DNA of 64,000 bases from a virus. Taxonomy: Duplodnaviria > Caudoviricetes. Positions 8,101 through 46,505 of this stretch are shown here, piece after piece. The position numbers were made by a program, and so were the translations under genes. The stretch is from the IMG/VR virus record IMGVR_UViG_3300031784_000002. One strand, written 5' to 3'. The notes under the pieces are model-generated. The model did not search any database. It was not told where the DNA came from and saw only the letters and a list, made by a program, of their open reading frames with translations. The number at the start of each line of letters is the position of its first letter. The stretch's first letter is position 1.

Positions 8101-11100
8101 TCAGATAAAACATTCTCCTTCTATAACACTAAAAAGTTAACTTTTGTTGAAAGTAACATTATTATTCAAAGTGCTACTAAGTTTTCTTATAAAACAACTT
8201 CTACTAATGCATTAGGGCCAATATCTAAATTAAAAATTAATTTCCCAGGTAGAGGTTATAAGAAATTGCCAAATATTAGAGGAATAAGAAGTTCTTCTGG
8301 TAAAAATGCAGTATTGAAACTCATATCTCCAAATATTGGAAGAGTTGAAACTTTTAGTAGAATTAAGGATGGATTTGATTATCCAACAGATCCAACATTG
8401 TCACCATCCCTAAGTGTTCCTACTGTAATTGGAATAAAAGATATAAGAACCATAGATTATGTTGGAATTATTACTGGCGGTAAACGTTATAACAGCCCAC
8501 CAAAACTAGTAGTGAAAAATGATACTAGTGGAATTGAACTTAACGCTAAAATATCTGGTGGATCTGTAATTTCTGTGGATGTTATTAAAAACTCCACATC
8601 ATTATCAACACCATTAGACATTGTTCCAATATACAACTCAAATGGTTATGAAATTGATGCAATTACAGTAGGTGGTGATTTAGTAACACTCGAATTATTG
8701 AATAATTCTACCTTTAATCCTTTCATATCTTCTGGATTTGGAAGAACCGATTTTGTATATCCTTTTAAAATAGGAGATAAAATTTTTATTGAAAACTGCA
8801 GATTGACTGACGTTACATCAGACAATGCCAACTTCAATTCATCTTCATATAATTATTCCTTCTTTGACGTTGTTGGTGTAAACACTAACAATGCCACTGT
8901 AACCTATAACATGGCTGGAATTTCTACAGGATCTTTTGGTACATATAATGATGAACTTAATCTAGGCGTTGTTATTAATAAAAATGATATGCCAGAATTT
9001 ACTATGGTGTTAAAAGATGATGTTAGTTATATCTCGAATGAAAAGGTATCTTCAGAAACATTTTTTGGTACAGTAATGGAAAATGGTTGGGATAATAATC
9101 TCAATCAAATGAGATTAAAAAGTATTTCTGGAGAAATAAACGCAGGAGATAAAATTTTTGGAGAAATATCCAAGATAAATGGTACAGTTGAATATTTCGA
9201 TGTATTTAATTTATATGCTACCCTTGGAGTTTCTAGAGATAAAACATCTTCTATAGATCTTTCTTCTGGTATTTTAAACGATTCCTTACAAAAAATTTCT
9301 GATAATTTTTATTATCAAAAGTTTTCTTATTCAATCAAAGGAAGCATTCCTTACAACGTTTGGAGAGAATCCGTAAGATCGATTGTACACCCGTCCGGAT
9401 TTAAGGAATTTTCTGATTTAGAAATTTTTACAAAACCAACTTTAAATGAAGTTAATTTGGGAATTGCTAAATCTACTGGCATGAAACCAACTTTACTATC
9501 AACAGATTCATTTACTTTTATTAACATTGATCAGACAATACCATTAAATCTGCGGTCAAATTTTGCTAGAGTTTATGAAGAAGAATTGTTGCCTGATGGA
9601 TCTATACAAAATGTATATCTTGATGAAGGTGTTGACTTAACATCTTATATAATTAACAAAACAAATAAAGTCATTGAAATTGATAACATTAGTGATCAAT
9701 TTGAAGGAAGTTCCATACAATCGTTAGACCAACGTTTTTATGGAGGTGCTGATTTATTAGAGGGTAATAGAACTTTTATTCAAGAAGAAGTAGTAGGATT
9801 TATTACTACAAAATATCCAGGTATTAGTACAAATGTTGGATGGAGTAAAACTGTATTTTATGATAGTGTTGGATATGTTGTTGATGCAGTTACCCATGAT
9901 GTTAAGTATAAATCAAATAATAAATCTATTGAAGGGGGATTGAGTTATTGGGCCGGACTTGGCACTAGTTATGTTGCAGGAATACCAACCGAAACAATCG
10001 ATGCATTTAGATATGTTGTAGATTTATCAAAATACATTATTAATAATGTTGGAGTAAAGACATCTTACCAACTATTAAATTCTGTTGGAATATCTTCAGT
10101 TGTTTATAACAATATAACTGGAGTAACGACTGTTGGAACAACAACTAGCCATGGATTATCTACAACTACTACTAATTATGTTGTATTAAAGAATATATCC
10201 TTCTCATACAATCCAGGCAGTGGAATAACCACTTCAATTTTCCCAAGTTTGAGTTTAACCGGACCATTAACAGCTGAAAAATTTGTATATGAGGTTGAAG
10301 TTGTCGATTCGGTAAGATTTAGAATAAGAACAGGACCATCAACTATAAGTTATACTTATTTAAGTGGTGGTACAGCTCAAAAAGCCTTTATATCTACATC
10401 TCAATATCTAAGTTATGCAGTTCTACCTGATTTTGATTGTAATCCAAATTACAATGAAAATTGTTATGCAGACGTTCAAGCATCGGTTAGTAATTATGTT
10501 GGAATAATTACTACTATAATTGGGATTGGAACAACAGCAAGTCCTGATACAATAGTATCTCCATCTTTAGCAAAAGGTGGATCAGTAGTTGGATTGAGTA
10601 CTTTTAAATTAAAGAATAAAGGAACTTCTTTGTTTAAACATGAGTTTTCTGGTAGTAAAGTTGATATTGTTAATGACAAGTTTATAATTCCGAATCATAA
10701 TTTCCAATCTGGACAAGAGTTAATATATTCATATTCTGGTGGAAGTCCAGTTGGTATTGCAACTACTTCACATGTTACCGGCAATCTTGATACCCTACTA
10801 AATGTTCATAATTTCAGCGGAACAGCTGTTTTTGAAAATGGTTATAATGTTGGAATTACAACTGTTATTTCCGGAACAGTTCCAACTGGTCCAACTGGAA
10901 CTGTGAGTTATAATCAAGTAATTGGAGTTAACACTACTGGATTTGGAACAAATGCTGTATTTAATGTTTTAATTAATTATAATGGAGGAGGAGTTGCCAT
11001 ATCTACATCTATCATTCCAACTTATGGTGGATATGGATATAGTCTAGGACAACAAGTTTCTATTTCTGGAACTTATTTTGGTGGAACAAATCCAACTAAT

Positions 11101-31238: not shown

Positions 31239-34200
31239 ATGACTAAGCAGGTACAGCTCAGAAGAGGAACAACAGCTGAACACGCAACATTTACAGGAGC
31301 AGTAGGTGAATTAACCATTGATACTAGTAAAGACATCGCCGTTGTTCATGATGGAGTCACTACCGGTGGTCATGAACTTGTAGGTGTTGCTGCTACTGGA
31401 CAAACAATTGTTAATAAAGATGGACTTGCAATTGGTTCTAGTATAGCTAGTTCTCCATTGACAGTTATAGGAAACTCATATATTTCTGGAATTGGTACTT
31501 TTGGCGACGATGTTAATGTTGGATCTGACCTAACAGTTTCCGGGGATGCAACATTTGCTGGAATAACAACTACATTAGGCGTAACTATTGGGGTAGGAAA
31601 TACCGATTTAATAGTAAATGGTACTGCAAGGATAACCAATACTTTGTCAATTGGTACTAGTACTATAACTTTAAATGGAAATACTAATACGATAAGTGCT
31701 GAGACTGCTTCTTTTACTAGATTATCAGTCAGTGGTGAGAATGTAACTGTTGCAACTTTTGGTAAAACAGTTACAAATACAGTTTCTTCGGGATCTACAT
31801 CAATTCCAGTAAATAATACAACTTCTTTATTGGTGGGAGATTTAGTTAACGTTACTGGTATACTTACACATGTCCCAATTGTTGGATTAGGAACTACTTC
31901 AGTAACTTCTTTTTATGAAACTGGATCAACGACCTCAATTTCAACAACAGTAAGTGCAGGATCCACTGTTATTGGTGTATCCACAGATGTTGGCATTTCA
32001 ACATCAAATTTTATTTCTGTAGCTGGAATAATCACCAATGTACCTATTGTTGGATTTACAACTACTTCTTTAGGTAATGTTTATAACTTAGTAAGTATTA
32101 CTGGGGTAGCTTCAACTGTATCTTCAGCTTCAACATCTTTCCCAGTTAATGCGACAACTAATGTTATTGTTGGTGACTATGTGAGCGTTGCTAATAGTAC
32201 TACTGGTGCTATTTTAGTTAATAGACAACAAATATTAGGATTAGGATCTACTGATGGAACTCCATATTATCTAACAATCAATACTACATCTATTTCAACA
32301 ACTGTAAGTATTGGATCAACTATTATTTCAATTGGAAGTACATCTGGAATTACCACAAGTTCATTTATTACCGTATCTGGAATTATCACCAATGCTCAAG
32401 TTGTTGGTGTAATTACAACAGGACTCACAACTTCTTATCAAACTTCCGGTTCAACTACCGTAGCTTCTACTGTAGCTACTGGATCAACGGTAATTTCTGT
32501 TGCTTCAACTTCTGGAATAGTTGTTGGAAGCGCTATTGACATTACTGGTATATTTGATAAGGTAAGAGTTACTGGTATAGGCCTCACTACAATAACAATT
32601 GGCGCAGGAAATACTTACAATAGTACTATATCATCTGGATTGGCTCTAACTTCATTTCTAGTTTCTGAGACTCTAAACTATGCTGCTCTGATTGGATCTG
32701 GAAGTACTTCAAATCAAGTTTTACCATCAGGAACATCTGTAAATGTAAATTCATTCATTACTCCATCAATACCTGTAGTAATCATTGGGTCTTCTGTTGG
32801 AACTAATTTGGGTATAGGTTTTACTGTAACTTATGAAAGACTAACTACTCCTACTGGACCTGCTATTCTAATTGGATCTGGAAACACTTCAAATCAGTCC
32901 ATTCCAGTTGGAACAGCTGTATCATACACATTTTTAAATAATGTAAGGTCAACTATTATTATTGGAACTGGAAATACTTCAACTTCTGTTATTTCTGCGG
33001 GATCTTCTCTTAATATTATAAGACAAGAATCGGTGCAGAGTGATTTAAATATTAATAATTTGAAAGCGGTTGGTATTACAACTATTGAACAATTAGTTCT
33101 TTCTGGTCTAACTTTCCCAACTATTGATGGAGCAAAAGGACAAGTTCTTGCTACCGATGGTGCTGGTAATATTGGATTTACCACTGGTGGTGGAGGAGGA
33201 GGATCTAACGTAATTCTTAGAGTATCTTCTAAGACAGGTAGTGACAGTAATGATGGCAAGATTCTTCCTCTTGCAACTATCAGAAAAGCAACTCAACTTG
33301 CATCTATGGTTGGAGAACCGGTAACTATTCTCGTAGAAACTGGTGAATATGTAGAAGATAACCCAATTATTGTCTATGATGAGGTTTCTATTATTGGAGA
33401 TTCTCTAAGAAATATCGTAGTAAGACCTCAAAATGCTGGTAAGGATTTATTTAAGGTCAGAAATGGTTGTTACCTCACAGGAATGACTTTTAATGATTAT
33501 ATCAATCCTACTACTAAAGTTCCTCAGCACACTTATAATTACTCCATAGCTTTTGACGATCCTTATGATTCATCAATATCTAGAACTGGTTATGCTGCTA
33601 CAGCTATTGTAGATATCACAAATGCTGTCTATACGCCATCAACCGGCATTTTAACTGTTACAACAGCTACACCACACCAATTATATTCTCCAAACAGTGT
33701 AAGACTTTCTGGACTTGCATTTACTTGTGGATATGATGAGGTTGGAGTTAGTACATTTAGATATACTAATACAACTGGTGTTTCAACTTGCACTACAGTA
33801 AATGTACATGGACTATCTACTGGTAGCAAAGTATTTTTAGCAGGTCTTGCATTTACTTGTTCTGCAGAACATGCTGGAGTAACCACCACAATTTTCCCAG
33901 ATGGGACCAGTCAATATGGAAGGATATTTACGGTAACTAGTGTTGGTAGCACCAATACATTTACATTTAATGCCGGAATTTCGACAATTGGACATAATTA
34001 TGTAAGTGGAGGTACTGTACAAAAAGCACTAATTTACCCTGAAGCAAATTCCGATGGAAGAATTGATTTTGGTGTTATCAGTGTAGGTTCTTCAACTACA
34101 TTTACCATTAGAGCTGGAGTTACTACTGTACCACACTATTATACTCAAGATGGTACGGCTAGAATTTCCAAACCAATTATTAATAAATCTCCATACATAC

Positions 34201-37200
34201 AAAACTGTTCTATTCTTTCTTTCCTTGGTGGTAATGGTATTCTTGTAGATGGTAATAAGATTGCTAGTCAAAACGAAGCAATCGTTCCCGAACTTGGAGA
34301 AAGACCTACTGCAGGAGAAGGACCGGAATTTGGTAAGTCAATGGTTGCTGCAACCTTTACCATGGTATCTTTTGGTGGTATTGGTTGGAGAACAATTAAC
34401 GATGGATATGCACAGGTTGTTTCTTGTTTCCAAATTTTCTGCCGTTATGCATCCTTAACTCAGTCGGGTGGTTACCTATCAATCACTAACTCCGCTACAA
34501 ACTTTGGAGATTTTTCTCTTAGATCCACAGGTTTCAGTCCAAATGCTTTTGCATTTGATAAGGGACGTATTGCCGCAACTGGCACTAGAGACGGACTTCA
34601 AACACTCAAGGTCATTGGACTTGGTAGAACCGACCAAGATCTTTATGTTTTACAATTCTTAGATAATAATCTTGCCAATAGAACTGGTGATTTCAAACCA
34701 GTTGTAACAAGTCAAGAATTTAACGGTGGTCAAATTAGCACCACAACAAACATTTTCAACATTTCAGGTCACCCATTCAGTAACTTAGATCCAGTTGTAT
34801 ATCTTGGAAATGAAAACGACGCAAATCCACAGTTTATTAGTGGAATGGTTCCAGGAAACCAATATTATGTTTCATATATTGATGCATCTAATTTCTACCT
34901 CTACCAAGATGAAGGTTTAGAAACCATTGTAACTATTGGATCTACATTTGTAGGCATTAATACATTATCTAAAAATAATCAAGAATTTTTTGTAGAAGAA
35001 ATCTTTGATACTCATGGTTCATACCAAACAGTCAGTCTTGCATCAACTTCAAGTACACTTAAGTTTGTATCTGGAAGACAAATTACTCAAACCGTAACAG
35101 GGGGTAATGCAGTTGGTTATGCACTGACATTTAATTCAACCTCAAGACAACTTGTTGTTTCTGTAGAGGCTGTTGCTGGAGTTAGGAGATTCTTCTCCAC
35201 TGCGGGTGGAAATATTAGTGATCACAATGCATCCCCAGTTTCAATTGGTGTAACTGCTGTTGCTGGAATAACAACATATAAAACGGTAGACTTCAAAGTA
35301 GATTCTACTAATACAGGAACCGTTATTGCTGGTATTAGCACACTTCCAGAAAATTACTACTTACATTTCCATAGACCATCTATTATTAACTCTTCTGGTC
35401 ATACATGGGAATATTCTGGATCTGGAACTGATTACAATGCACTTCCTCAAAATGGTGGTAAAGGTGATGCTGCAACTGAACAGGTTTCAGAACTTGGTGG
35501 TAGAGTATATGCTTCTGGTACTAATGAACTTGGTGACTTTAAGATCGGTGATCAGATTACTGCATTTAACAGAACTGGTAACATTATCTTCAACAACAAA
35601 GTTACAATCGGTCAGTTAGATAGTATTCGTCTTTCACTCTCTGGTGGTGTAGCCGTTGAGGAATTCTCTACAGACGTAAATCTTGGAGAAGGTGAGATTG
35701 GTGGACCACAGAATAAGAGAGTTTCTACTCAACTTGCTGTAAGATCTTTCCTTGGAAATAGACTTGGGACATTCATTGATAAGACGGTATCTGCAAATGC
35801 AGTTCCGAATGCAGTTGTTCAGTTAAATGCTAATGGCCAAATTAACCCAGATCTAATTCCTCCAAAAGTTGTTAATTATAACATTACCAACGTTGGTGGC
35901 GGCAGAACTATGTTATCCAACCAAATTCCATCAATTAATATTCTTCAGGGGGACACTGTTGTTGAGCCGGATGATTCTTATGTACTCGTTAATGATGTTT
36001 TAAGTCAATATCTGGTCTTAGATACTGATGGAAGAGATTATAACTTCAATAATGGTAATGTAGTTACTTCCGCACTTGCTGAAGCAGTTACTGGCGTTGT
36101 TACGGCACCTCCTAGAGGACTTGCAATTGGTGTTGGTACAACTGGGTACGTAGATTATAATTACGTTGGTTATGGAACCACAGGCCTTGTTAAGGGCGTG
36201 ATGTTGGGTGGTATAATTAATGCTGCTGGATCTGGATATAATGTCGCTGGAGTTTATACTGGAGTACAATTACTCACACAGACAGGTGTAGGTACTCAAG
36301 CCACTGCTAATATTACGGTTAGTGCTGGTGGTAGTGTAACGAGTGTAGATATTCATGGTGGTGGTAGGTACTACGCAAGTGGAAACATTGTTTCTGCTGC
36401 GGCTACTGCTTTGGGTGGAAGAACTGGTGGATCTGACTTCCAGTTCACTATTAATGACGTTGAAACTAGACTTTACATTGGTCTTACAAATAATCAAAAG
36501 TTTGCTGGTTCTTCAGCTCTGGCCGATTATATTGCAGATAATGATGCAGCTGGTATTTCTACAGTATTAACTACAAGATATGAAGTAACCTTTACACCTA
36601 CAGATATTTCGGTTGGAGGTAATATTGACTTCATAAATGATAGAATTGTGGTTGGAGCCGGTAACAGTTTTGTTAATGGAGATCCAATCATTTATGACGC
36701 AAATGGTGGTAACATTATTACTGTTGGTGGTCTTGGTATTATTAACTTGTCTACTTACTATGTTAAGGTAGTTGGAGCGGGTACTTCAGTTGAATTACAC
36801 AGAACATATCAGTTAAATGATCCATTAGATCTAACTGGTAGTGGAACAGGTACACACAAACTTGCAAGAGCTGTAGTAAACGTAGAAGAGGATGCTCTCG
36901 TAATAGTTGGTCACGGATATTCAACTGGTACTCCAGTTAGAGTGACTGGATCAACACCAGTTGGAATTGATACTCATGCATTCTACTATGTTGGTTCAAT
37001 AACAACTAACTCATTTACATTCCACGAAACGCAATCTGATGCATTGTCTTCCGTAAATGGAGTAAGTTTCAATACAATTGCAATTGGATCAACTTCTACT
37101 GGTACAATAACTCTAACAAAACAAAACGTAAGATATGCTTCTGTTGTTAATACTTCATCCACAAATCCCAATAACTGGGCTTTACTTGCTAGAGACAGTA

Positions 37201-38177
37201 TTGACGCTTCTAACATTGTATCTGGAGTAATTTCACCTACAAGACTAGGAACTGGATCTGCAAACTCAGACACTGTTCTTACCGGTACTTCGGAATATAA
37301 GAAGAATGTCTTCTCAGTGGGCATTGGTACGACTCAACCATTAGGTGTAAGTTCTTATACAAGTGCAGATTTAGCTGCAGGTGGAGTTGGAGTTAACACA
37401 TATTATGGTTCATTAAATTTTACAGTCACTAGAGCTGCTGGATCTGCAGATCTTTATTCAACTCTTGGTGTTGCAAGATTTAAGACCAGTACCTTCTCTG
37501 TAGATACTGATGGTAATGTTCAGATTAAAAATTCACTAACTGGTGATGTTGATGCTGCTACTCTAGGTGGTCAAACCGGTGCTTATTATCTAAACTCACT
37601 AAATCATACTGGCGCTGTTCCTATTACCAGGGGTGGTACTGGTCAAAATGGTGTTCCTGCTGCAGGTGCAATTCTGCAGGGTAATGGAACTGCTTATAAC
37701 TTAACTACTGCTCCAATATTTACAGGTATCACAACCTTCAGTGGCGGCACTGCATCATCTTCAACAACAACTGGACAGGTTGTAATTACTGGTGGTCTTG
37801 GAGTTAGTGGAAATATTAACCTAGGAGGAACCTTAAATGCGGTTTCCAAGTCATTCTTAATTGATCACCCAACAAAACCAGGATACAAACTCCAATATGG
37901 TTCTCTTGAGGGTCCAGAAAATGGAGTATATGTAAGAGGTAAACTTGTTGGTTCGGATACAATTCAACTTCCAGATTACTGGACTGGATTAGTTGATGAA
38001 GAAACAATTACCGTAACATTAACTCCAATTGGACAAACTCCAGTTCTACATAGTGCAGTAAGTACAAGTATTTCTGAAGTAAAGGTAGCTAGTGCAGGTG
38101 ATATTAACTGTTACTATGTTGTTTACGCAGAAAGAAAGGATACTGAAAAACTTGTTGTAGAATTTGAGGGGGTTTGA
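31239..38177 (+). CDS. Tail fibre or tailspike: Mtd-type N-terminal domain, Thr/Ser/Val repeats, pectin-lyase-like beta-helix, C-terminal chaperone-like domain
   Basis: MTKQVQLRRGTTAEHATFTGAVGELTIDT is Mtd_N-like. GSDSNDG...PLATIRKA...TILVETGEYVE...SIIGDSLR is a beta-helix entry motif. SKSFLIDHPTKPGYKLQYGSLEGPE is a common fibre C-terminal domain. Confidence 0.8.
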   Translation: MTKQVQLRRGTTAEHATFTGAVGELTIDTSKDIAVVHDGVTTGGHELVGVAATGQTIVNKDGLAIGSSIASSPLTVIGNSYISGIGTFGDDVNVGSDLTVSGDATFAGITTTLGVTIGVGNTDLIVNGTARITNTLSIGTSTITLNGNTNTISAETASFTRLSVSGENVTVATFGKTVTNTVSSGSTSIPVNNTTSLLVGDLVNVTGILTHVPIVGLGTTSVTSFYETGSTTSISTTVSAGSTVIGVSTDVGISTSNFISVAGIITNVPIVGFTTTSLGNVYNLVSITGVASTVSSASTSFPVNATTNVIVGDYVSVANSTTGAILVNRQQILGLGSTDGTPYYLTINTTSISTTVSIGSTIISIGSTSGITTSSFITVSGIITNAQVVGVITTGLTTSYQTSGSTTVASTVATGSTVISVASTSGIVVGSAIDITGIFDKVRVTGIGLTTITIGAGNTYNSTISSGLALTSFLVSETLNYAALIGSGSTSNQVLPSGTSVNVNSFITPSIPVVIIGSSVGTNLGIGFTVTYERLTTPTGPAILIGSGNTSNQSIPVGTAVSYTFLNNVRSTIIIGTGNTSTSVISAGSSLNIIRQESVQSDLNINNLKAVGITTIEQLVLSGLTFPTIDGAKGQVLATDGAGNIGFTTGGGGGGSNVILRVSSKTGSDSNDGKILPLATIRKATQLASMVGEPVTILVETGEYVEDNPIIVYDEVSIIGDSLRNIVVRPQNAGKDLFKVRNGCYLTGMTFNDYINPTTKVPQHTYNYSIAFDDPYDSSISRTGYAATAIVDITNAVYTPSTGILTVTTATPHQLYSPNSVRLSGLAFTCGYDEVGVSTFRYTNTTGVSTCTTVNVHGLSTGSKVFLAGLAFTCSAEHAGVTTTIFPDGTSQYGRIFTVTSVGSTNTFTFNAGISTIGHNYVSGGTVQKALIYPEANSDGRIDFGVISVGSSTTFTIRAGVTTVPHYYTQDGTARISKPIINKSPYIQNCSILSFLGGNGILVDGNKIASQNEAIVPELGERPTAGEGPEFGKSMVAATFTMVSFGGIGWRTINDGYAQVVSCFQIFCRYASLTQSGGYLSITNSATNFGDFSLRSTGFSPNAFAFDKGRIAATGTRDGLQTLKVIGLGRTDQDLYVLQFLDNNLANRTGDFKPVVTSQEFNGGQISTTTNIFNISGHPFSNLDPVVYLGNENDANPQFISGMVPGNQYYVSYIDASNFYLYQDEGLETIVTIGSTFVGINTLSKNNQEFFVEEIFDTHGSYQTVSLASTSSTLKFVSGRQITQTVTGGNAVGYALTFNSTSRQLVVSVEAVAGVRRFFSTAGGNISDHNASPVSIGVTAVAGITTYKTVDFKVDSTNTGTVIAGISTLPENYYLHFHRPSIINSSGHTWEYSGSGTDYNALPQNGGKGDAATEQVSELGGRVYASGTNELGDFKIGDQITAFNRTGNIIFNNKVTIGQLDSIRLSLSGGVAVEEFSTDVNLGEGEIGGPQNKRVSTQLAVRSFLGNRLGTFIDKTVSANAVPNAVVQLNANGQINPDLIPPKVVNYNITNVGGGRTMLSNQIPSINILQGDTVVEPDDSYVLVNDVLSQYLVLDTDGRDYNFNNGNVVTSALAEAVTGVVTAPPRGLAIGVGTTGYVDYNYVGYGTTGLVKGVMLGGIINAAGSGYNVAGVYTGVQLLTQTGVGTQATANITVSAGGSVTSVDIHGGGRYYASGNIVSAAATALGGRTGGSDFQFTINDVETRLYIGLTNNQKFAGSSALADYIADNDAAGISTVLTTRYEVTFTPTDISVGGNIDFINDRIVVGAGNSFVNGDPIIYDANGGNIITVGGLGIINLSTYYVKVVGAGTSVELHRTYQLNDPLDLTGSGTGTHKLARAVVNVEEDALVIVGHGYSTGTPVRVTGSTPVGIDTHAFYYVGSITTNSFTFHETQSDALSSVNGVSFNTIAIGSTSTGTITLTKQNVRYASVVNTSSTNPNNWALLARDSIDASNIVSGVISPTRLGTGSANSDTVLTGTSEYKKNVFSVGIGTTQPLGVSSYTSADLAAGGVGVNTYYGSLNFTVTRAAGSADLYSTLGVARFKTSTFSVDTDGNVQIKNSLTGDVDAATLGGQTGAYYLNSLNHTGAVPITRGGTGQNGVPAAGAILQGNGTAYNLTTAPIFTGITTFSGGTASSSTTTGQVVITGGLGVSGNINLGGTLNAVSKSFLIDHPTKPGYKLQYGSLEGPENGVYVRGKLVGSDTIQLPDYWTGLVDEETITVTLTPIGQTPVLHSAVSTSISEVKVASAGDINCYYVVYAERKDTEKLVVEFEGV

Positions 38178-38180
38178 TAG

Positions 38181-39626
38181 ATGACAATATCGGTAGGAAG
38201 TTCTTCTTTTATTTCTGATGGATTAATTTTATATTTTAATCCATCAAACCCCAAAAATTACCTATTGAATGAAATTGAGGTTTTATTAATTGGTGGTGGG
38301 GGAGGTGGATCGGAAAATCAATATGATGATGGATCCGGAGGTGGTGGAGGGGGATTTTTACAGAGGGTTACGAATGTCTCTTCATCTACAGCTTATACTA
38401 TTACTGTGGGTAATGGAGGTGGAACTGGTGGAAGTGGATCTGTCGGTGGAAATACCAGTGCTTTTGGGTTAATTGCTTATGGCGGCGGCGGTGGGTCTAG
38501 TCATAGGAGTAGTGGTGGAACTGTTGATGGAGCTAGTGGCGGTGGATCAGGTGGACAATACTCTTCAGATATTCCAGTAGTAGGTAGAGCAATATATGGC
38601 GATCAAGGAAATGATGGTGGTGCAAGTATAACTTATGGTGGAGGAGGTGGAGGAGGTGCGGGCTCTGCAGGACAAGGTTCAATAACTTATGGTCATGGCG
38701 GTTATGGAGGCAAAGGTAGAGCTTCTTCAATATCTGGAACTTTAAGATATTATTCTGGAGGCGGAGGCGGTTTTGGTTATGCTAATTTGGGTAGAGGTGG
38801 AATCGGTGGAGGTGGTTCTACGGGAGTTTCTCCACAAGCGAATAGTGGTGGTGGAGGAGGTGGAGGAAAAACCACCGGAAACAGAGCTACTGGTGGTGCT
38901 CAGGGAGTTGTGATAATTAGATACCCTGGTCCACAAAAAGCAACAGGTGGTAATACTATTACTTATATTGGTGGATATACTATTCATACATTTACTTCAA
39001 CTGGAACGTTTACCACTCTTGGCACACCATCTAATGGTTCTACTGTTTATGGATTGTATGATCTGAGTAATAATTTAAATTCTGCAAATACCTTAGGAGC
39101 GTCTTATGCTCCTACTTACAATATTAGTGCATCGGGAACTTTACTTTTTGATGGATCTGATGATATTATTCAGTTTGATAGATCCCCCATTTTAAGTAAT
39201 TTGAAAGCTTCTTTGGGAGGTGAAGGTTATACTGTTTTAATCTGGGCAAGATCTACGAGTACCACTGGCCAGTGGAGAAAATTAATAGGAAATGATGATG
39301 GCGAGAATTATATTGATCTATACCAAAATCCTAGTGGATATTATCATCAGGAGTGTGGATCAACGTTATATGTTGATGGTACACAAGTATCTCAGGGATC
39401 TTATTATATGCCAAACGCCGGTTATCATTTTTGGGGAGCCACAAATTATAACTCCGGCACACTAAATAATCCCAGTAGAGGATTTGGAATATTTAATGAA
39501 CCAGATAGAGTTAGATCATATCAACTTGCAGGAAATTTGGGAGAAGTTTTTATATTCAATAGAGTATTAACTACAAACGAGATTAATTTAATTTTTAATT
39601 CCACAAAAAGTAGGTATGGACTATAA
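38181..39626 (+). CDS. Cassette 1 gene A: glycine-rich domain inserted in a LamG/ConA-like lectin domain (putative adhesin)
   Basis: DGLILYFNPSNPKNY, then EVLLIGGGGGG...TIHTFTSTGTF, then a LamG-like C-terminus (LGEVFIFNRVLTTNEI...RYGL). Confidence 0.75.
   Translation: MTISVGSSSFISDGLILYFNPSNPKNYLLNEIEVLLIGGGGGGSENQYDDGSGGGGGGFLQRVTNVSSSTAYTITVGNGGGTGGSGSVGGNTSAFGLIAYGGGGGSSHRSSGGTVDGASGGGSGGQYSSDIPVVGRAIYGDQGNDGGASITYGGGGGGGAGSAGQGSITYGHGGYGGKGRASSISGTLRYYSGGGGGFGYANLGRGGIGGGGSTGVSPQANSGGGGGGGKTTGNRATGGAQGVVIIRYPGPQKATGGNTITYIGGYTIHTFTSTGTFTTLGTPSNGSTVYGLYDLSNNLNSANTLGASYAPTYNISASGTLLFDGSDDIIQFDRSPILSNLKASLGGEGYTVLIWARSTSTTGQWRKLIGNDDGENYIDLYQNPSGYYHQECGSTLYVDGTQVSQGSYYMPNAGYHFWGATNYNSGTLNNPSRGFGIFNEPDRVRSYQLAGNLGEVFIFNRVLTTNEINLIFNSTKSRYGL
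38919..38999 (+). repeat. 81-bp perfect direct repeat, arm L copy 1 (partner 41491-41571)
   Basis: Base-by-base identical: AGATACCCTGGTCCACAAAAAG...CATACATTTACTTCA. Confidence 0.95.
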
Positions 39627-39724
39627 TGGCTAACTCAGATAAAAATATTCTAATAACTCCCAATAAAAATGCCTCTGGTATTCCAGAAATTGCTCTGACT
39701 GGTTTTGGCAATTCTACAATTTCA
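39617..39724 (+). repeat. 108-bp perfect direct repeat, arm R copy 1 (partner 42189-42296), spanning the A/B gene junction
   Basis: Base-by-base identical: TGGACTATAATGGCTAACTCAG...CAATTCTACAATTTCA. Confidence 0.95.
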
Positions 39725-40723
39725 GCAAATATTCCAGATTCTAACATTGGTACTTTAAATTTTTCTACAAGTACAAAAAATATTTTTTCAATTGATAGTG
39801 ATCAAAATTCAAATATCCAACTATCTATAGGAAGCACTACATCTGGTAGTTTTTTAGAGCTCAAAAATTTTGGAAATTTAAGTATAAACACTCCAAAAAC
39901 TACAATATATGGAAAGGGGTTGAAATTATCAAAAGTAAAACCAACAACATCTCCTTCCGTTAACGGAAAAATTGCTTACGATTCCGTACAAAAAACTTTG
40001 GTAGTTAGCAATTCAACTACATGGACTTCTTATAGTTCTCCAACTTATGTACAAGATGGACTTATAGTTTACTACGATGCTTCCAGACCAGACTCATATC
40101 CAGGAAGTGGTAGCGTAGTTTACGATATTAGTGGAAGTTCTATTGGATCTGGTGAAATGCATGGAACAATGGGAAATGTTGGGTTTAGTACTGAAAGAGG
40201 TGGAGCCTTAACATTTAATGGATCCAATTCTTATATTGATGTCAATAATAGTAGTGATTTATTGCGAGATTTTTCTGGATATACTGTAGAGTGGTATACC
40301 AAGATAACTACAGCTACTGCATGTGAAATTTTTGGTAATTATGGTCCTTCGTTTACAACTAATTACTTGTGGATTGCAGCAAGATATGGACATTATTTAA
40401 ATGGAGCAAATCCTTATTTTGTTGCAGGACCTTACACTGAGGCTGCTCCTCTTGAACCGGGATACACTTATCATGGAGCGGTGACTAGAGATCCTCAAAC
40501 TAGAAATACGATGTTGTATTTGAATGGATTTTTAAATACAAGTTCTACTGCAGATGCAAGAATAGGAAATGGAATCAATTATAGAATTGGATTGGATGTA
40601 AACTCAAGTACGGCCGAACCTTTTGGTGGTAGTTTATATTTAATCAGAGTCTATAATAGACCTCTTACCCCTAAAGAAATTCAAATAAATTTTGAGTCCG
40701 CAAGGACCAGAGTTGGATTATAA
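39626..40723 (+). CDS. Cassette 1 gene B: conserved MANSDK N-terminal domain plus LamG-like C-terminal domain
   Basis: MANSDKNILITPNK...; then DGLIVYYDASRPDSYPGSGS...VYNRPLTPKEI. Confidence 0.75.
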   Translation: MANSDKNILITPNKNASGIPEIALTGFGNSTISANIPDSNIGTLNFSTSTKNIFSIDSDQNSNIQLSIGSTTSGSFLELKNFGNLSINTPKTTIYGKGLKLSKVKPTTSPSVNGKIAYDSVQKTLVVSNSTTWTSYSSPTYVQDGLIVYYDASRPDSYPGSGSVVYDISGSSIGSGEMHGTMGNVGFSTERGGALTFNGSNSYIDVNNSSDLLRDFSGYTVEWYTKITTATACEIFGNYGPSFTTNYLWIAARYGHYLNGANPYFVAGPYTEAAPLEPGYTYHGAVTRDPQTRNTMLYLNGFLNTSSTADARIGNGINYRIGLDVNSSTAEPFGGSLYLIRVYNRPLTPKEIQINFESARTRVGL

Positions 40724-40726
40724 ATA
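40719..40726 (+). promoter_or_regulatory. Late promoter TATAAATA for cassette 2
   Basis: Exact consensus overlapping the stop of cassette 1 gene B. Confidence 0.8.
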
Positions 40727-40758
40727 TCTTTTATGAAGACTAATAATAGGAAAAAATA

Positions 40759-42198
40759 ATGACCATAAGAGTTGGATCTGGAATAATTAAAGATGGTCTT
40801 ATTTTGCATCTTGATGCAGCTGATCAGTTAAATTATCTACTTTCCGTTGTTGAAGTTCTTGTGGTCGCTGGCGGTGGTGGTGGCGGTGTTTGTTATGGAG
40901 GAGGAGGTGGTGGAGGAGGAGTAGTATATTCAAATTCGTATTCCGTAACACCTGGTACTGGTATAAACGTTTCCATAGGTAATGGTGGAACTAATCAAGT
41001 AAACGTTGTCGGTAATGGTGGCCCTGGAGGCAACTCTTCTTTTGGTAATTTAACTGCTATTGGTGGCGGCTACGGCGGCGGTAATTGTGGTAATGCAGGA
41101 GGTTCTGGGGGATCAGGAGGCGGTGGATCTGGTACAGGGTCTGCAAGAGTATCTGGTGGTACAGGAACTCCTGCGATGGGTTTTGATGGAGAAACTTCTA
41201 TTCCCGCTGGTGGAGGTGGAGGTGGAGGTGCTGGTTCTTTAGGATTTAGAAGAGCTGGCGGGAATGGACTTCCATTTACCATTTCCGGATCTATTCAATA
41301 CTATGGAGGAGGTGGTTCCGGCGGTGGACCAGAGGACATGCCAGGCGGAGCTGGCGGTGGTGGAATGGGGGGCACTGCAGTTGCTTCTGGAAGAGCAGAT
41401 GCGACTCCTAACACTGGCGGTGGAGGTGGAGGTAGTATTATTTCCGGTTCTGGAGTTTCTGGTATAGGTGGATCAGGAATAGTAATTGTAAGATACCCTG
41501 GTCCACAAAAAGCAACAGGTGGTAATACTATTACTTATATTGGTGGATATACTATTCATACATTTACTTCAGCTGGAACATTTACTCCAAATTCTTTACC
41601 ATCAAATAATAGTTCCATCAACGGATTATTTGATTTAACTGGAGATGGTAATACGGCTTTTCAATCTGGGGGAGTAACTTATAATGCAAGTAACTCTGGT
41701 GCATTAAATTTTGATGGGAGTAATGATTTTTTAACTTCTCCAGCATCCTCTTTGTTTTCATTTGGGACAGGGGATTTTACTTTAGAAATTTTGATATATC
41801 CAGAAAGTTTTTCTACTTATACCCATATGATCGCTCTTCCAGATCAAAATACATTTGCACTTAAAGCCAATGCATCTGATGGCCAAATATACTTTTATAG
41901 TCCATCTTATAATACTTTTGGTTCTACTTCGGGTTGGACTTTATCTTTGAATACTTGGAATCATGTAGTTTTTAAAAGAGAATCTTCTATAGGTTATGCT
42001 TTTTTAAATGGTATTTCTAGGGGATCTAAATCTGGATTTATTAACAATTTTACATCACGAGTATTAAATATCCACAATGGATGGCCAAATGAATTTACTC
42101 AATGTAGAATATCAAATGTAATGATATATAATAGATCATTAACTACTTCAGAGATCCAACAAAACTTCAATGCACTCAGAGGGAGGTTTGGACTATAA
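40759..42198 (+). CDS. Cassette 2 gene A: glycine-rich domain plus LamG-like domain
   Basis: DGLILHLDAADQLNY, EVLVVAGGGGG..., C-terminal IYNRSLTTSEIQQNFNALRGRFGL. Confidence 0.75.
   Translation: MTIRVGSGIIKDGLILHLDAADQLNYLLSVVEVLVVAGGGGGGVCYGGGGGGGGVVYSNSYSVTPGTGINVSIGNGGTNQVNVVGNGGPGGNSSFGNLTAIGGGYGGGNCGNAGGSGGSGGGGSGTGSARVSGGTGTPAMGFDGETSIPAGGGGGGGAGSLGFRRAGGNGLPFTISGSIQYYGGGGSGGGPEDMPGGAGGGGMGGTAVASGRADATPNTGGGGGGSIISGSGVSGIGGSGIVIVRYPGPQKATGGNTITYIGGYTIHTFTSAGTFTPNSLPSNNSSINGLFDLTGDGNTAFQSGGVTYNASNSGALNFDGSNDFLTSPASSLFSFGTGDFTLEILIYPESFSTYTHMIALPDQNTFALKANASDGQIYFYSPSYNTFGSTSGWTLSLNTWNHVVFKRESSIGYAFLNGISRGSKSGFINNFTSRVLNIHNGWPNEFTQCRISNVMIYNRSLTTSEIQQNFNALRGRFGL
41491..41571 (+). repeat. 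81-bp perfect direct repeat, arm L copy 2
   Basis: Identical to 38919-38999, offset 2572 bp. Confidence 0.95.
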
Positions 42199-42296
42199 TG
42201 GCTAACTCAGATAAAAATATTCTAATAACTCCCAATAAAAATGCCTCTGGTATTCCAGAAATTGCTCTGACTGGTTTTGGCAATTCTACAATTTCA
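42189..42296 (+). repeat. 108-bp perfect direct repeat, arm R copy 2
   Basis: Identical to 39617-39724, offset 2572 bp. Confidence 0.95.
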
Positions 42297-43277
42297 ATAA
42301 GAGTACCAGATGACACAACAGGAACTCTTTCTTTTGAAAATTCCGGTAGAAGATTATTTTCAATAGATACCAACTTAAGTTCGGGAGAATTGTTTAAAGT
42401 TGTAAATAATACTTCCCAAGCACCAGTATTCAATGTTAATTCTAATGGAAATTTAATTTTATCGCCAAAATTAGGGACAACAAATATTAGTGGAAATGGA
42501 ATAACACTTCCATCTTATAGTAGCAATTCATTACCGGATGGAGAAGAAGGACTTTTAATATATGATAGAACACTAAAAATTGTACGTATATATTCAGATA
42601 ATAAATGGGTAAATTTGGGAAATCCACCAATTGTAACTAGTGGATTGGCCCTTAGATTGGATGCAAGTGATATTCGTTCATATCCCGGAAATGGTTCAAT
42701 ATGGTATGATCTAAGTGGATATAATAACAACTGCAATTGGAGCAGCACACCTTCATTTGATCATAGGGGATTTTTTAGATTCAATGGATCAAGTCATGCA
42801 GGAGTTATTACCAATAATGGAAGTTTGAATACCAATTATGAACAAACTTTAATAATGGTACTGAAACATAATTATAACTCAGGAAGAAGAAATCCATGGA
42901 ACCAAGCATACGCTGGTTTTGGAACTTGGACTCATGAACAGGGGGAAAATATTAGTTGGTATTTTGGTGATGGTGGCGGAGATAATAGTCCATACTTGGG
43001 ATATAGTAGCCCATCAACACCCCGAAATAGATGGAACATTCTTGCTACTGTTAGAAATATTTCAAATTATCAGTGGTATTATGATGGAATTTCTACCGGT
43101 GTTTCTTCAAATCCTTATGCAGTTTTAACAGATAGTAGCGCAAATATTACAATAGGAAATGGATATGCTGGATATTGGCAAGGTGACATGGGAATGGTTC
43201 TTATGTACAGAAGAGCTTTGACTACTGACGAAATTCTCCAGACTTATAATGTCATAAGACTTCGTTATCCGATATAA
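42198..43277 (+). CDS. Cassette 2 gene B: MANSDK domain plus LamG-like domain
   Basis: The first 33 aa are identical to gene B1. SGLALRLDASDIRSYPGNGSIWYDLSG...MYRRALTTDEI. Confidence 0.75.
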   Translation: MANSDKNILITPNKNASGIPEIALTGFGNSTISIRVPDDTTGTLSFENSGRRLFSIDTNLSSGELFKVVNNTSQAPVFNVNSNGNLILSPKLGTTNISGNGITLPSYSSNSLPDGEEGLLIYDRTLKIVRIYSDNKWVNLGNPPIVTSGLALRLDASDIRSYPGNGSIWYDLSGYNNNCNWSSTPSFDHRGFFRFNGSSHAGVITNNGSLNTNYEQTLIMVLKHNYNSGRRNPWNQAYAGFGTWTHEQGENISWYFGDGGGDNSPYLGYSSPSTPRNRWNILATVRNISNYQWYYDGISTGVSSNPYAVLTDSSANITIGNGYAGYWQGDMGMVLMYRRALTTDEILQTYNVIRLRYPI

Positions 43278-43280
43278 ATA
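43273..43280 (+). promoter_or_regulatory. Late promoter TATAAATA for cassette 3
   Basis: Exact consensus overlapping the stop of cassette 2 gene B. Confidence 0.8.
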
Positions 43281-43309
43281 TAAAAAAAGATGATTTTACA
43301 ATAATATAA

Positions 43310-44890
43310 ATGGCAATAAGTATTGGCCAAACTTCTATTACTCCAACTAATGCAGATCTTCTTTTTTACTTAGATCCTGCGATTAGTTATAATTACACTT
43401 TATCTGACGTTGAAGTTCTCGTAGTCGCTGGAGGCGGCGGAGGAGGCGGCTGGGGAGGAGGAGGAGGCGGTGGGGGTGTAGTTTATAATAGATTGTATCC
43501 GGTGACTCCTGGTACTGGAATTAATATTTCTATTGGAAATGGAGGAAGTCCAGGAACTAACGCATATACCTCCGGTGGAGATGGAGAAAGTTCAGTTTTT
43601 GGTACTATTACTGCAATAGGTGGAGGAGGCGGCGGACATTATAATGGGAATAATGGTAGAGCTGGTGGATCCGGAGGAGGCGGCGGTGGAGCCTCAAATG
43701 CAACTTATGGATTCGTGACCACTGGTGGCTCTGGTACTCCGAGACAAGGAAATAATGGAGGTAGAGGTGGTGGGCTCCCTGACGGTTCAATCTATAATCC
43801 AGGTGGAGGTGGAGGTGGAGCTGGAGAACGTGGATATGATTTTGATATTAATCTTAGACTGGGTGGAAAGGGTGGAGATGGACTGCCATTTAATATTTCT
43901 GGAAGATTAAAATATTATGGCGGCGGTGGAGGAGGCCATACAGATGGTAGAGGTGGAACCAACTCAACTTCTTTTGGAGGAAAAGGTGGTGGAGGTCGTG
44001 GAGGAAATTATGGCATTCCACGAAGAGGATTAGATGGTGCTCCAAATACTGGAGGTGGGGGAGGGGGATCTTATGGAACCTCATCCGGATATGAGTGTGG
44101 TGCTGGTGGTTCTGGAGTAGTCATCATTCGTTATCCAGGATTACAAAAAGCATCAGGTGGAAACACTATCACTCAGGTTGATGGTTATACTATTCACACG
44201 TTTACTTCGGGTGGAACTTTTACTCCAAATACAGCACCAACAAATGGAGGTGGTTTGAATGGACTTCAAGATTTGGGTCCAAATGGATATAATTTCTATC
44301 AAGTCAATACACCAACTTATAATACAAGTAGATCTGGAACAATTGATTTCAACGGAACTAGTGCATACTTGGAATCCGTTTTACCAACAAGATATAGTGC
44401 AGCATCCGTTTATACTATTAATATGTGGTTTAAAATTAATGGTGCCCCTAGTGGTGCAAGTGGAAATCAGGCCAATTTCTTGATAGATTTAGATGTTACT
44501 GGTGGATCTTTCAATGGATTGATAGTTGATTGGCAGCCATACTTGTCAGGAAGTTCGCAAATGAGATTTGCATATGCAACTAGACCATCTAGTGGTGGAT
44601 CTTATACACCTCTACTAGGATCAGTTTTAACTCAGGGGGTATGGTATAATGGTTGTGTTGTAAAAAATGGAACTACAGAAACCAGACTATATTTAAATGG
44701 ATCTTTAGAATCTACATATTCTGGCAATATGCCTTCTTGGGGCACAAATACTGTCCGAATAGCTAGATGGACTGATGGAACAGTATATTCCAATTGTTCT
44801 GTTGGTGTAGTTTGGGTTCAAAATAAAGCCTTAACTGCTTCTGAAGTTTTGCAAAACTTTAATGCACTTAAAGGGAGGTATCAAGTCTGA
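43310..44890 (+). CDS. Cassette 3 gene A: glycine-rich domain plus LamG-like domain
   Basis: DLLFYLDPAISYNY, EVLVVAGGGGG..., TIHTFTSGGTF, C-terminal NKALTASEVLQNFNALKGRYQV. Confidence 0.75.
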   Translation: MAISIGQTSITPTNADLLFYLDPAISYNYTLSDVEVLVVAGGGGGGGWGGGGGGGGVVYNRLYPVTPGTGINISIGNGGSPGTNAYTSGGDGESSVFGTITAIGGGGGGHYNGNNGRAGGSGGGGGGASNATYGFVTTGGSGTPRQGNNGGRGGGLPDGSIYNPGGGGGGAGERGYDFDINLRLGGKGGDGLPFNISGRLKYYGGGGGGHTDGRGGTNSTSFGGKGGGGRGGNYGIPRRGLDGAPNTGGGGGGSYGTSSGYECGAGGSGVVIIRYPGLQKASGGNTITQVDGYTIHTFTSGGTFTPNTAPTNGGGLNGLQDLGPNGYNFYQVNTPTYNTSRSGTIDFNGTSAYLESVLPTRYSAASVYTINMWFKINGAPSGASGNQANFLIDLDVTGGSFNGLIVDWQPYLSGSSQMRFAYATRPSSGGSYTPLLGSVLTQGVWYNGCVVKNGTTETRLYLNGSLESTYSGNMPSWGTNTVRIARWTDGTVYSNCSVGVVWVQNKALTASEVLQNFNALKGRYQV

Positions 44891-46044
44891 TGGCTAATTC
44901 TGATAAAGATATTTTAATAACGCCTAATAAAAATGTTTCTGGGTTACCAGAAATAAGATTTACTGGATTTGGTAATTCAAGTCTCTCTCTTGTAGTTGCA
45001 GATGATAATACTGGAAAGATAAACTTTGTAAGTTCTGGTGCAACTGCTTTTTCAATTGATACCAATGTAAATAATGGAGTATTACTTAACGTTGCTGACA
45101 GAAATTCAGTACCACTTTTAGAAATTTCCGACACAAATTCTTTACTTGGATATGAATTGGGTACTGTTTCCGTGGAAGGTGATGGAATAGTATTACCTTC
45201 TTATGGAACAACTGCATTACCAATAGGAACTCCAGAAGGAACTATTGTTTATGATGATAACCATCAAGTAGCAAAAGTATATAATGGCACTGTTTGGACA
45301 CCAATTGGTGGCAGAAAAAATGGATTAACTGCTGATACCGCGGCAGAATCAACAGAACAATTAATCACAGATTATCCGGATTCTCCAACTGGTTTTTATT
45401 GGATTCTCGTTGATAGAATCCCACAACTATTTTGGGTTGACATGGTTTATGAGGGTGGAGGATGGATTCTTGTATTAAATAATAGAATTAATACAAATGG
45501 AATGACAGGATTGAATTATCAATCAGCAACTACTAGAGTAATTAATTATAGAGGAAATTATTATTCAGCAACAGGAAATAATCCTACAAACTTTAATCTT
45601 TGGGTTGGATTAGATGCATGGGTAAAATTAGCTAATGCCAACTTTAGTACATCAAATAGAGTTGTTGAATTTGTTGCCTCTGCATATCAACCCCTTGGGG
45701 CAGTTCATCAACATACAAAAAGGGCTAGTTGGGATTGGAGTGGTTGGGGTGGTGCTTACGCTTGGCAAGGTCTTGCAAATACTTATTTAGAGTTGGGTGG
45801 ATCTCTACCAGGATTATACTCATATCACGCAGCAAATGGATATAATTTAACTACTTTTGATGTAGACCAAGATGTAGCTGGTAACAATTGTTCTACTGCT
45901 TATTTTAATCAACCGAATTGGTATGGTGCATGTTGGTCTGGTAGTCCTTTTGGGGGAGGTGGTTCCGGCAGTCATGCTGATGCTTGGTTCTGGGATAGTT
46001 CTACTAGCGACTATCACAATTATGGTGCTTTATACGTTAGGTAA
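44890..46044 (+). CDS. Cassette 3 gene B: MANSDK domain plus fibrinogen-like C-terminal domain
   Basis: MANSDKDILITPNK...; then GFYWI...LFWVDMVYEGGGWILV, TTFDVDQD...NC and WYGACW, which resemble fibrinogen C-terminal domain motifs. Confidence 0.65.
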   Translation: MANSDKDILITPNKNVSGLPEIRFTGFGNSSLSLVVADDNTGKINFVSSGATAFSIDTNVNNGVLLNVADRNSVPLLEISDTNSLLGYELGTVSVEGDGIVLPSYGTTALPIGTPEGTIVYDDNHQVAKVYNGTVWTPIGGRKNGLTADTAAESTEQLITDYPDSPTGFYWILVDRIPQLFWVDMVYEGGGWILVLNNRINTNGMTGLNYQSATTRVINYRGNYYSATGNNPTNFNLWVGLDAWVKLANANFSTSNRVVEFVASAYQPLGAVHQHTKRASWDWSGWGGAYAWQGLANTYLELGGSLPGLYSYHAANGYNLTTFDVDQDVAGNNCSTAYFNQPNWYGACWSGSPFGGGGSGSHADAWFWDSSTSDYHNYGALYVR

Positions 46045-46049
46045 AATTT

Positions 46050-46451
46050 ATGGAACCAATTAAAAGGAAATCAAACAAATTAAATATTTTAAAGTCTGAG
46101 GATGTATATAAATTAGTTTGGATAAATGATGACGAAATTATTTTTTCAGAAAAATATATTATTTCTTTTGATTCTGAAAATAATCCAACTAATTTCAATC
46201 TAACAGAAATCATTGAACATAAAAAACATTGTTGTTTAGATATTGATGACGAAAATTTTCAAGTAATTGAAGAAGAAAATTTTAGTTTTATTATTGGTGT
46301 AAATGATGCAATTAATGATTTGCGACCTGGATCAAAATATCAGTTAAACGGTAAAACATTTACTTATTGGGAACATGATTCTCAACCACCGTCTTGGGAA
46401 GAAATTTCTTTACACATAAAAAAAATGCAGAGGGATTTGGATTCAAACTAG
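46050..46451 (+). CDS. Small hypothetical protein, C-terminus resembling XkdW-type tail fibre chaperones
   Basis: DAINDLRPGSKY...W....QPPSWEEI pattern, and it ends the fibre cluster. Confidence 0.5.
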   Translation: MEPIKRKSNKLNILKSEDVYKLVWINDDEIIFSEKYIISFDSENNPTNFNLTEIIEHKKHCCLDIDDENFQVIEEENFSFIIGVNDAINDLRPGSKYQLNGKTFTYWEHDSQPPSWEEISLHIKKMQRDLDSN

Positions 46452-46470: not shown

Positions 46471-46478
46471 TATAAATA
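46471..46478 (+). promoter_or_regulatory. Late promoter TATAAATA for gp13
   Basis: Exact consensus, 28 nt before the gp13 ATG. Confidence 0.85.
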
Positions 46479-46505
46479 CCTCTAGAAGACTAGGGGTATT
46501 TTTTT
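46474..46505 (+). terminator. 12-bp hairpin plus U tract overlapping the late promoter and the gp13 ribosome-binding region
   Basis: AAATACCTCTAG-AAGA-CTAGGGGTATTT followed by TTTT and then ATG. Confidence 0.7.

Follow-up and report, generated by a model that had tools for sequence, protein, structure and literature searches.

Probable gene-conversion tracts at the borders of exchangeable lectin modules in a tandem array of putative adhesin genes of a freshwater T4-like phage

Two exact repeats shared by neighboring gene pairs

The 64,000-nucleotide (nt) stretch of viral DNA catalogued as IMG/VR record IMGVR_UViG_3300031784_000002, called the window below, contains three tandem pairs of genes, A1-B1, A2-B2 and A3-B3 (cassettes 1 to 3), that encode putative lectin-like adhesins. 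Cassettes 1 and 2 share two exact direct repeats, arm 1 and arm 2, which enclose a divergent segment, the core, in each of the two A genes. Comparison with related metagenome contigs makes it quite likely that the two repeats arose recently through non-reciprocal gene conversion between cassettes 1 and 2, over short tracts, and that cores have been replaced at such conserved segments over longer times. The initial annotation of the locus, made from the letters alone, had described the arms as recently homogenized recombination handles by which the phage could swap its binding domain, or delete or amplify a 2572-nt unit. The homogenization and the exchange of cores were borne out by our comparisons, and the deletion and amplification were not.

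The repeats themselves are as first described: on the plus strand, positions 38919-38999 equal 41491-41571 (81 nt) and positions 39617-39724 equal 42189-42296 (108 nt), both at an offset of 2572 nt, and one further base on any side breaks either match. No other exact direct repeat in the window is as long as these two, the next measuring 38 nt. The first copy of arm 1 covers codons 247-273 of A1 (RYPG...HTFTS), at the link between the glycine-rich domain and the LamG domain, and its exact counterpart lies in A2. Arm 2 comprises in its first copy the last three codons of A1, a TAATG in which stop and start overlap, and codons 1-33 of B1, and in its second copy the end of A2, the coupled stop and start, and codons 1-33 of B2.

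The identity extends to synonymous sites, all 27 and 33 codons being the same in cassettes 1 and 2. Cassette 3 keeps the peptides and differs silently, as had been noted, with 11 synonymous and 5-7 non-synonymous codon differences per arm; its homologue of arm 1 in A3 (44129-44209) is 77% identical to the arms, and B3 has 75% nt identity to arm 2. The 60-nt flanks of the arms, compared at the same offset, are 38-60% identical. With per-site identities of 0.77-0.88, taken from cassette 3 and from orthologues, full identity over 81 and 108 sites would arise by chance with probabilities from 3e-5 down to 6e-13. The arm motifs are conserved in the 31 A genes and 39 B genes compared.

Age of the gene pairs and probable conversion of the arms

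Positional orthologues of the window genes were compared in three related contigs that carry the same six genes (L002, L011 and L012). The N-terminal parts (N-parts) of A2 and A3 are 73-81% identical in amino acids (aa) among these contigs and the window, and the B bodies are 66-79% identical to their orthologues, with values of 66-71% for the C-terminal part of B1 and 72-74% for that of B2. Only L002 among the three has an orthologue of A1, at 73% in the N-part and 61% in the core; in L011 and L012 the A1 gene is no closer to the window A1 than a paralogue would be (49% and 31-38%). Paralogues within a genome share 23-61%. On these identities the three pairs are to be regarded as ancient paralogues.

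A very recent duplication of the 2572-nt unit would also leave exact repeats, and is excluded because the genes of cassettes 1 and 2 have positional orthologues of their own: the A N-parts, the A1 core and the B bodies each find theirs in L002, L011 or L012. Old paralogues that share two short identical tracts therefore point to gene conversion, with 100% identity inside the tracts versus 38-60% in the flanks, and the claim of recent homogenization stands in this form.

For arm 1 the direction of transfer can be suggested from residue signatures. Arm 1 of the window carries YIGG; L011_A2 has SYIGG in nearly the same nucleotides in the 3' half of the arm, and in the protein P0003 a TTIGG is linked to a module of the core-2 type. 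The A1 orthologues all have F-x-x-G, including that of L006; over A1, L006 and the window agree at 94%, and 10 of the differences fall within 38962-38990. Since A1 of the window carries the A2-type YIGG and its orthologues F-x-x-G, A2 was likely the donor and A1 the recipient.

Homogenization of arm 2 recurs among the relatives. Of the 39 B genes in 14 genomes, 22 have their closest match over the first 99 nt in a paralogue of their own genome. Half of these genomes (7/14) have a within-genome identity of arm 2 of 0.91-1.0, as against 0.79-0.88 for the best match in another genome. L002, L012, L018, L021, L023 and L026 carry perfect junction repeats (48-123 nt), and the cassette pairs that these link differ from genome to genome. 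By these comparisons homogenization of arm 2 is a trait of the family; arm 1 is homogenized in two of the 14 genomes, the window (1.0) and L017 (0.93).

Concerted evolution makes a tract in tandem paralogues more alike within a genome than orthologues are across genomes. The same is found here: a bounded tract is closer within the genome, synonymous sites included, its flanks keep the old divergence and the positional orthology, and independent lineages repeat the pattern. Compared with concerted evolution in general, the tracts here are remarkably short, at about 50-125 nt, and are found at module borders only; elsewhere the genes remain diverged, down to 25-50% aa identity. A literature search on gene conversion among phage fiber paralogues and on this adhesin family turned up nothing specific for phage adhesin arrays.

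The arms might instead be conserved as functional elements at the nucleotide level, such as an RNA structure, a signal for translation initiation or coupling, or a protein-binding site, and arm 2 does span the coupled stop and start and 33 codons of B, where features of the mRNA can matter. However, neither arm folds better than shuffled sequences (z = 0.46 and 0.59), an Rfam scan of both arms found no family, and a promoter scan found no enrichment of promoter-like sites in the arms. Relatives differ at 12-25% of the arm sites and keep the peptide, each arm of cassette 3 has its 11 synonymous changes, and the pairs of cassettes that are homogenized vary by genome. Because of these synonymous differences between genomes and the lack of an RNA structure, Rfam or promoter signal, a nucleotide-level function is largely refuted and we consider it very improbable.

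Integrity of the repeats and stability of the array

Metagenome assemblies can collapse or mis-join at repeats, and two observations might lead one to suspect such an artifact: the Logan unitigs (k = 31) break exactly at both arms, and the contig L006 ends at arm 2. Yet MEGAHIT contigs built at k = 141, a word that exceeds both arms in length, and JGI assemblies of other samples all match the window over 38000-46100 at 100%. The depth of the arm-2 unitig is also double that of its flanks, which is what two true copies would give. The prospect of an assembly collapse or mis-join, which the initial annotation had named as a possible refutation, is thereby removed. An artifact, or the recent unit duplication discussed above, retains a negligible probability as the source of the repeats.

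The six genes have the same order in all 24 contigs that contain the exact B1 protein and in all 23 that contain the exact A1. Several of these contigs, from samples of different studies, are 100% identical over 8.1 kb. The only variants among them are a 15-nt deletion and one frameshift, both in A2. The frameshift (L093:7134-8572, a JGI contig) splits A2 into 396 and 83 aa; the 15-nt deletion (L008, which is the same ENA contig as L094) is in frame and falls in the glycine-rich part. Ten diverged genomes all have three A and three B genes, in an order that varies by clade (ABABAB, AABBAB or ABBAAB). A second clade, with L017, L019, L020, L023, L025 and L027, has the order AABBAB or ABBAAB and not ABABAB, still with three A and three B genes.

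The proposed accordion, in which the arms are maintained as handles and unequal crossing-over in every burst gives a standing minority of in-frame chimeric, deleted or amplified arrays as a bet-hedging switch of host range, has some attraction. The arms are direct repeats that lie in frame in the genes they would join, so that any crossover product would be in frame. Recombination of the T4 type uses homologies of about 50 nt or more. The different gene orders of the clades imply past rearrangements. However, the uniform order of the exact-B1 and exact-A1 contigs, some identical over 8.1 kb, speaks against present-day deletion or amplification, and the constant number of genes in the ten diverged genomes speaks for selection against changes in copy number. 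Nor are paired handles a family trait, given that arm 1 is homogenized in so few genomes. Contigs are consensus assemblies, in which rare variants do not appear, and against shuffling at low frequency this evidence is weak.

Reads and unitigs from individual runs were also considered. Run X21 contributed 4 partial raw reads to the locus and run X22 contributed 15, all of them in glycine-codon low complexity. Joints within these reads, including one that skips 2572 nt, were rejected as noise, their sides of 21-23 nt lying in GGTGGAGG repeats. In run X1 the core-1 unitig (38970-39646) has a depth of 7.7, compared with 12-13 for the neighboring unitigs, and in run X17 a contig departs from the window sequence 75 nt into core 1. 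Both hint at variants that share the arms and may come from a second strain, present alongside, whose core 1 is different. Neither the related loci compared nor IMG/VR yielded the 30-mers of the divergent X17 contigs. Neither the loss of a 2572-nt unit nor the presence of core 2 in cassette 1 would explain the depth in X1, and this argues against the accordion; taken together, we regard an active accordion as unlikely. A shade less likely still is that the identical arms are a selected device that keeps cassettes 1 and 2 permanently able to recombine. Every burst would then include a few arrays that are chimeric in frame or have two or four pairs, as a form of host-range bet-hedging in an abundant freshwater phage; if that were true, the dip over core 1 in X1 would be its first trace.

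Two further mechanisms were rejected. An invertible segment or shufflon of the Mu Gin or P1 Cin type is at odds with the direct orientation of the repeats, and no recombinase family was found among the genes called within about 9 kb on each side. A diversity-generating retroelement does not fit arms that are identical around cores unrelated at the nucleotide level, and no reverse transcriptase was found among the neighbors. The upstream fiber gene does encode an Mtd_N domain; neither a reverse transcriptase nor a template repeat was seen among the neighboring genes.

Divergence and exchange of the cores

Core 1 (39000-39616, plus strand), the LamG-like segment of A1, and core 2 (41572-42188, plus strand), the LamG segment of A2, are equally long at 617 nt and highly divergent, as the initial annotation had stated; at 33% aa identity (BLASTP E = 1e-14) they are nevertheless homologous. 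Its assignment of a LamG domain to both holds directly for core 2, by Pfam and by fold search, and for core 1 only via homology to core 2. It had also taken the equal length as part of a recombination signature. Alignment of the two cores needs 28 gap positions, and the cores of relatives range from 207 to 235 aa; the equal length is thus due to compensating indels and looks like a coincidence. In nucleotides core 1 is about 97% identical to L006, and in amino acids 61% identical to L002_A1; because of these matches it is taken to be in its ancestral place. Core 2 belongs to a type that is a mobile module.

Relatives show what the initial annotation had expected of them, conserved arms with exchanged cores: N-parts at 73-81% identity stand against cores at 34-36%, and the core types are re-assorted. 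The A2 cores of the window, L002, L011 and L012 fall into three types that are 34-36% identical, and only L011 and L012 match one another (82%). Against its three orthologues the window A2 has 76-81% identity in the N-part and 34-36% in the core. Similarly, the N-parts of A3 are 79-80% identical, and the A3 core of the window is 35% identical to the type found in L002 and L011 and 58% identical to that of L030_A3. A tree of the N-parts groups positional orthologues with starred support, whereas the core tree does not. In the approximately unbiased (AU) test a single clade was rejected for the A3 cores (p = 0.008).

Recombinant genes can be recognized individually. L020_A3 has its N-part in common with L021_A1 but its core with L021_A3, and L017_A1 joins an A2-type N-part to an A1-type core; these re-assortments have starred support. 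When A2 and A3 of the window are aligned with their L002 orthologues, nucleotide similarity ends 19-36 nt past arm 1 and returns about 70 nt before the stop codon. Modules of the core-2 type (58-77% aa identity) also occur on unrelated N-terminal domains in other metagenome proteins. The contig L013 follows L002 exactly as far as position 10768 and is identical to L011 between 10547 and about 12900, and the resulting 222-nt crossover interval (10547-10768) includes arm 1 of cassette 3 (10571-10651). The far right end of L013 exactly matches neither parent, which argues against a simple chimera of two strains. In these metagenome contigs conserved segments surround divergent ones and the breakpoints of recombinants fall in the conserved segments, the pattern that motif-mediated exchange would leave.

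We propose that conservation of the proteins keeps enough nucleotide identity in the arm-1 and arm-2 segments to seed homologous recombination. Non-reciprocal recombination between cassettes 1 and 2 would then leave short identical tracts, and over evolutionary time the LamG cores of A genes have been swapped between cassettes and between phages at the same conserved segments. Recombination enzymes of the T4 type may be the agent, and the identical arms would be no selected device but a by-product of the process.

Several points weigh against this explanation. The case for conversion is built from sequence patterns only, and selection, whether for recombination handles or for a shared docking interface, could also keep the arms identical, so that by-product and device would look alike. 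For the direction of the arm-1 transfer, the cluster of L006 differences adjoins a glycine-rich block that is generally more diverged, because of which the call draws chiefly on the residue signatures. For the highly diverged A2 cores a single clade was not rejected in the AU test (p = 0.51); for these cores, taken by themselves, very fast divergence in place is a conceivable account. L013 is a single metagenome contig and might be an assembly chimera. Finally, the roles of the A and B proteins in adsorption are deduced from their domains and folds.

Domains of the A and B proteins

All three A proteins match Gly_rich_2 (PF21722), with 69 bits for A1, 69 for A2 and 92 for A3 against a curated cut-off of 24.3. 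Laminin_G_3 (PF13385; curated cut-off 27.6) is matched by A2 (61.7 bits), B1 (49.1) and B2 (45.2), with no Pfam match to this family for A1 or A3; A3 matches LamG-containing PHROGs. The LamG assignment of the proteins matched by Pfam is borne out by fold search as well. In a model of A2 (mean predicted local distance difference test score, pLDDT, of 84), residues 28-252 align to residues 96-280 of the Pam3 fiber gp24 (7ypx) with Z = 12.9, a root-mean-square deviation of 2.6 Å and 32% identity. The LamG part aligns to the Pan3 tailspike (Z = 19) and to carbohydrate-binding modules, with Z = 17-19 overall. Sequence searches of the PDB with A2 and B1 gave weak LamG-type matches only.

The LamG fold matches span residues ~3-479 of the A2 model, with about 190-210 residues aligned. 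In the model an N-terminal strand of A with the motif GLxLxLD seems to belong to the LamG sandwich, which would make the glycine-rich domain an insertion into LamG. The N-termini concerned are encoded at 38181-38270, 40759-40850 and 43310-43400. If the glycine-rich domain is such an insertion, a core swap would leave the first LamG strand behind.

From the N-terminus onward, the B proteins consist of a shared module (MANSDKNILITPNKN...), a beta-rich region and a LamG domain, which in B3 is replaced by a fibrinogen-like domain. The assignment for B3 (residues 166-369) is a weak one, with E = 0.004 to the tenascin FReD and E = 0.016 to Pfam Fibrinogen_C, below the cut-off; its orthologues in L002, L011 and L012 are 67-76% identical over these residues. 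The B-type module (MANSDKNILITPNKN) also heads proteins of about 650-2800 aa in other freshwater and marine contigs, among them L029, L032-L034, L038, L041, L042, L045, L052, L055 and L066. From its distribution in sequences it behaves as a general anchor-like module and is probably a virion anchor, and arm 2 may accordingly be described as a segment that would encode an anchor.

We infer from these domain and fold matches that A and B are adhesins. Exchange of their lectin modules may switch host range or set specificity; the cores resemble carbohydrate-binding domains at the level of the fold. Megablast and tblastn searches of GenBank phages with the locus found no close relative, the glycine-rich query probably having been masked, and B1 gave distant LamG matches only among GenBank phages.

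Organization of the locus

The window (35% G+C) comes from a freshwater T4-like myovirus, whose major capsid protein shares 82-84% identity with its counterparts in Synechococcus phages S-SCSM2R and S-SSM7. The locus sequence occurs at full word share in freshwater and lake metagenome runs from many studies dated 2017-2025; more than 17 public runs contain it at that share. The genes, arms, cores and promoter motifs mapped here are on the plus strand. Upstream of the three A-B pairs is the gene of a 2312-aa fiber-like protein (31239-38177) with Mtd_N at residues 5-41 (E = 1e-10), which is present in all related contigs, and downstream are the neck genes gp13, gp14 and gp15.

The stop codon of A overlaps the start codon of B (TAATG) in each pair. 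A1 (38181-39626; 481 aa) has a glycine-rich domain (Gly_rich_2, E = 8e-19) and a LamG-like C-terminal domain. B1 (39626-40723; 365 aa) has the conserved N-terminal module and LamG (Laminin_G_3, E = 9e-13, with model and fold matches). A2 (40759-42198; 479 aa) has the glycine-rich domain (Gly_rich_2, E = 7e-19) and LamG (Laminin_G_3, E = 1e-16) and is followed by B2 (42198-43277; 359 aa; Laminin_G_3, E = 1e-11). In the third pair, A3 (43310-44890; 526 aa) matches Gly_rich_2 with E = 8e-26, and B3 (44890-46044; 384 aa) combines the N-terminal module shared with B1 and B2 with its weakly fibrinogen-like C-terminal domain. The unit is closed by a 133-aa open reading frame (46050-46451) without a family match, 3' of which a terminator scan found a strong terminator-like hairpin at 46474-46501. 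An open reading frame of equal length (133 aa) also lies 3' of B3 in L002.

A late-promoter motif of the T4 type, TATAAATA, precedes A2 (40719-40726), overlapping the stop codon of B1 and ending 33 nt from the A2 start, and a second copy precedes A3 (43273-43280), overlapping the stop codon of B2 about 33 nt from A3. The window has six copies of TATAAATA, all on the plus strand, a count not above chance; the located copies (40719, 43273, 46471 and 57626) are all at gene boundaries. The three gene pairs, apparently late-transcribed, probably encode receptor-binding proteins.

Comparison with known systems and significance

Mosaic tail-fiber genes are already well known, and the closest precedent for the locus is the gp37/gp38 locus of T-even phages. 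There, conserved and partly glycine-rich motifs are proposed to be hot spots of recombination through which segments of the adhesin are swapped (Tetart et al. 1998, Trojet et al. 2011, cited in PMC12032242). As far as the locus is described in that source, the likeness consists in conserved segments that flank hypervariable receptor-binding segments, in a T4-like phage, and serve as crossover points for the exchange of modules between phages, with a glycine-rich adhesin domain involved. Unlike the short loops between glycine-rich motifs described there, the unit swapped here is most of a LamG domain (about 200 aa). The present genes also differ in forming a three-fold tandem array of two-gene cassettes, in belonging to another protein family (Pam3-like glycine-rich plus LamG, paired with an anchor-LamG partner), and in the recurrent conversion between paralogues that is visible within genomes.

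The fiber tip of Pam3, TNF-like and glycine-rich, was proposed to serve host recognition and was likened to the S16 gp38 adhesin (PMC9608196). The glycine-rich part of A2 resembles Pam3 gp24 (7YPX; PMC9608196). Unlike gp24, the A proteins have no N-terminal helical domain for docking to the baseplate and carry an added LamG domain. No chaperone like gp25 was identified beside the A genes, and Pam3 has one fiber gene.

In poxvirus accordions and in the pilE/pilS and vlsE systems, repeats or conserved flanks allow changes in copy number or replacement of a core. Unlike in those systems, no copy-number polymorphism is seen here in the contigs or the ten genomes. In contrast to pilE/pilS and vlsE, all of the cassettes are complete and expressed-looking, two of them with a late-promoter motif, and there are no silent donors.

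There is a practical warning in these repeats for the study of viromes, since short-k assemblies break at the arms, which can also give rise to chimeras of strains or hide them. For the biology of the phages, one locus shows two time scales, that of fresh conversion patches at module borders and that of repeated lectin replacement in relatives. The paired genes, putative adhesins by their domains, represent a previously undescribed and widespread family, with clear domain borders, in freshwater and some marine T4-like phages. That homogenization recurs at the B N-terminus suggests a docking site in common, and the module borders may serve as a guide for studying how receptor specificity changes.

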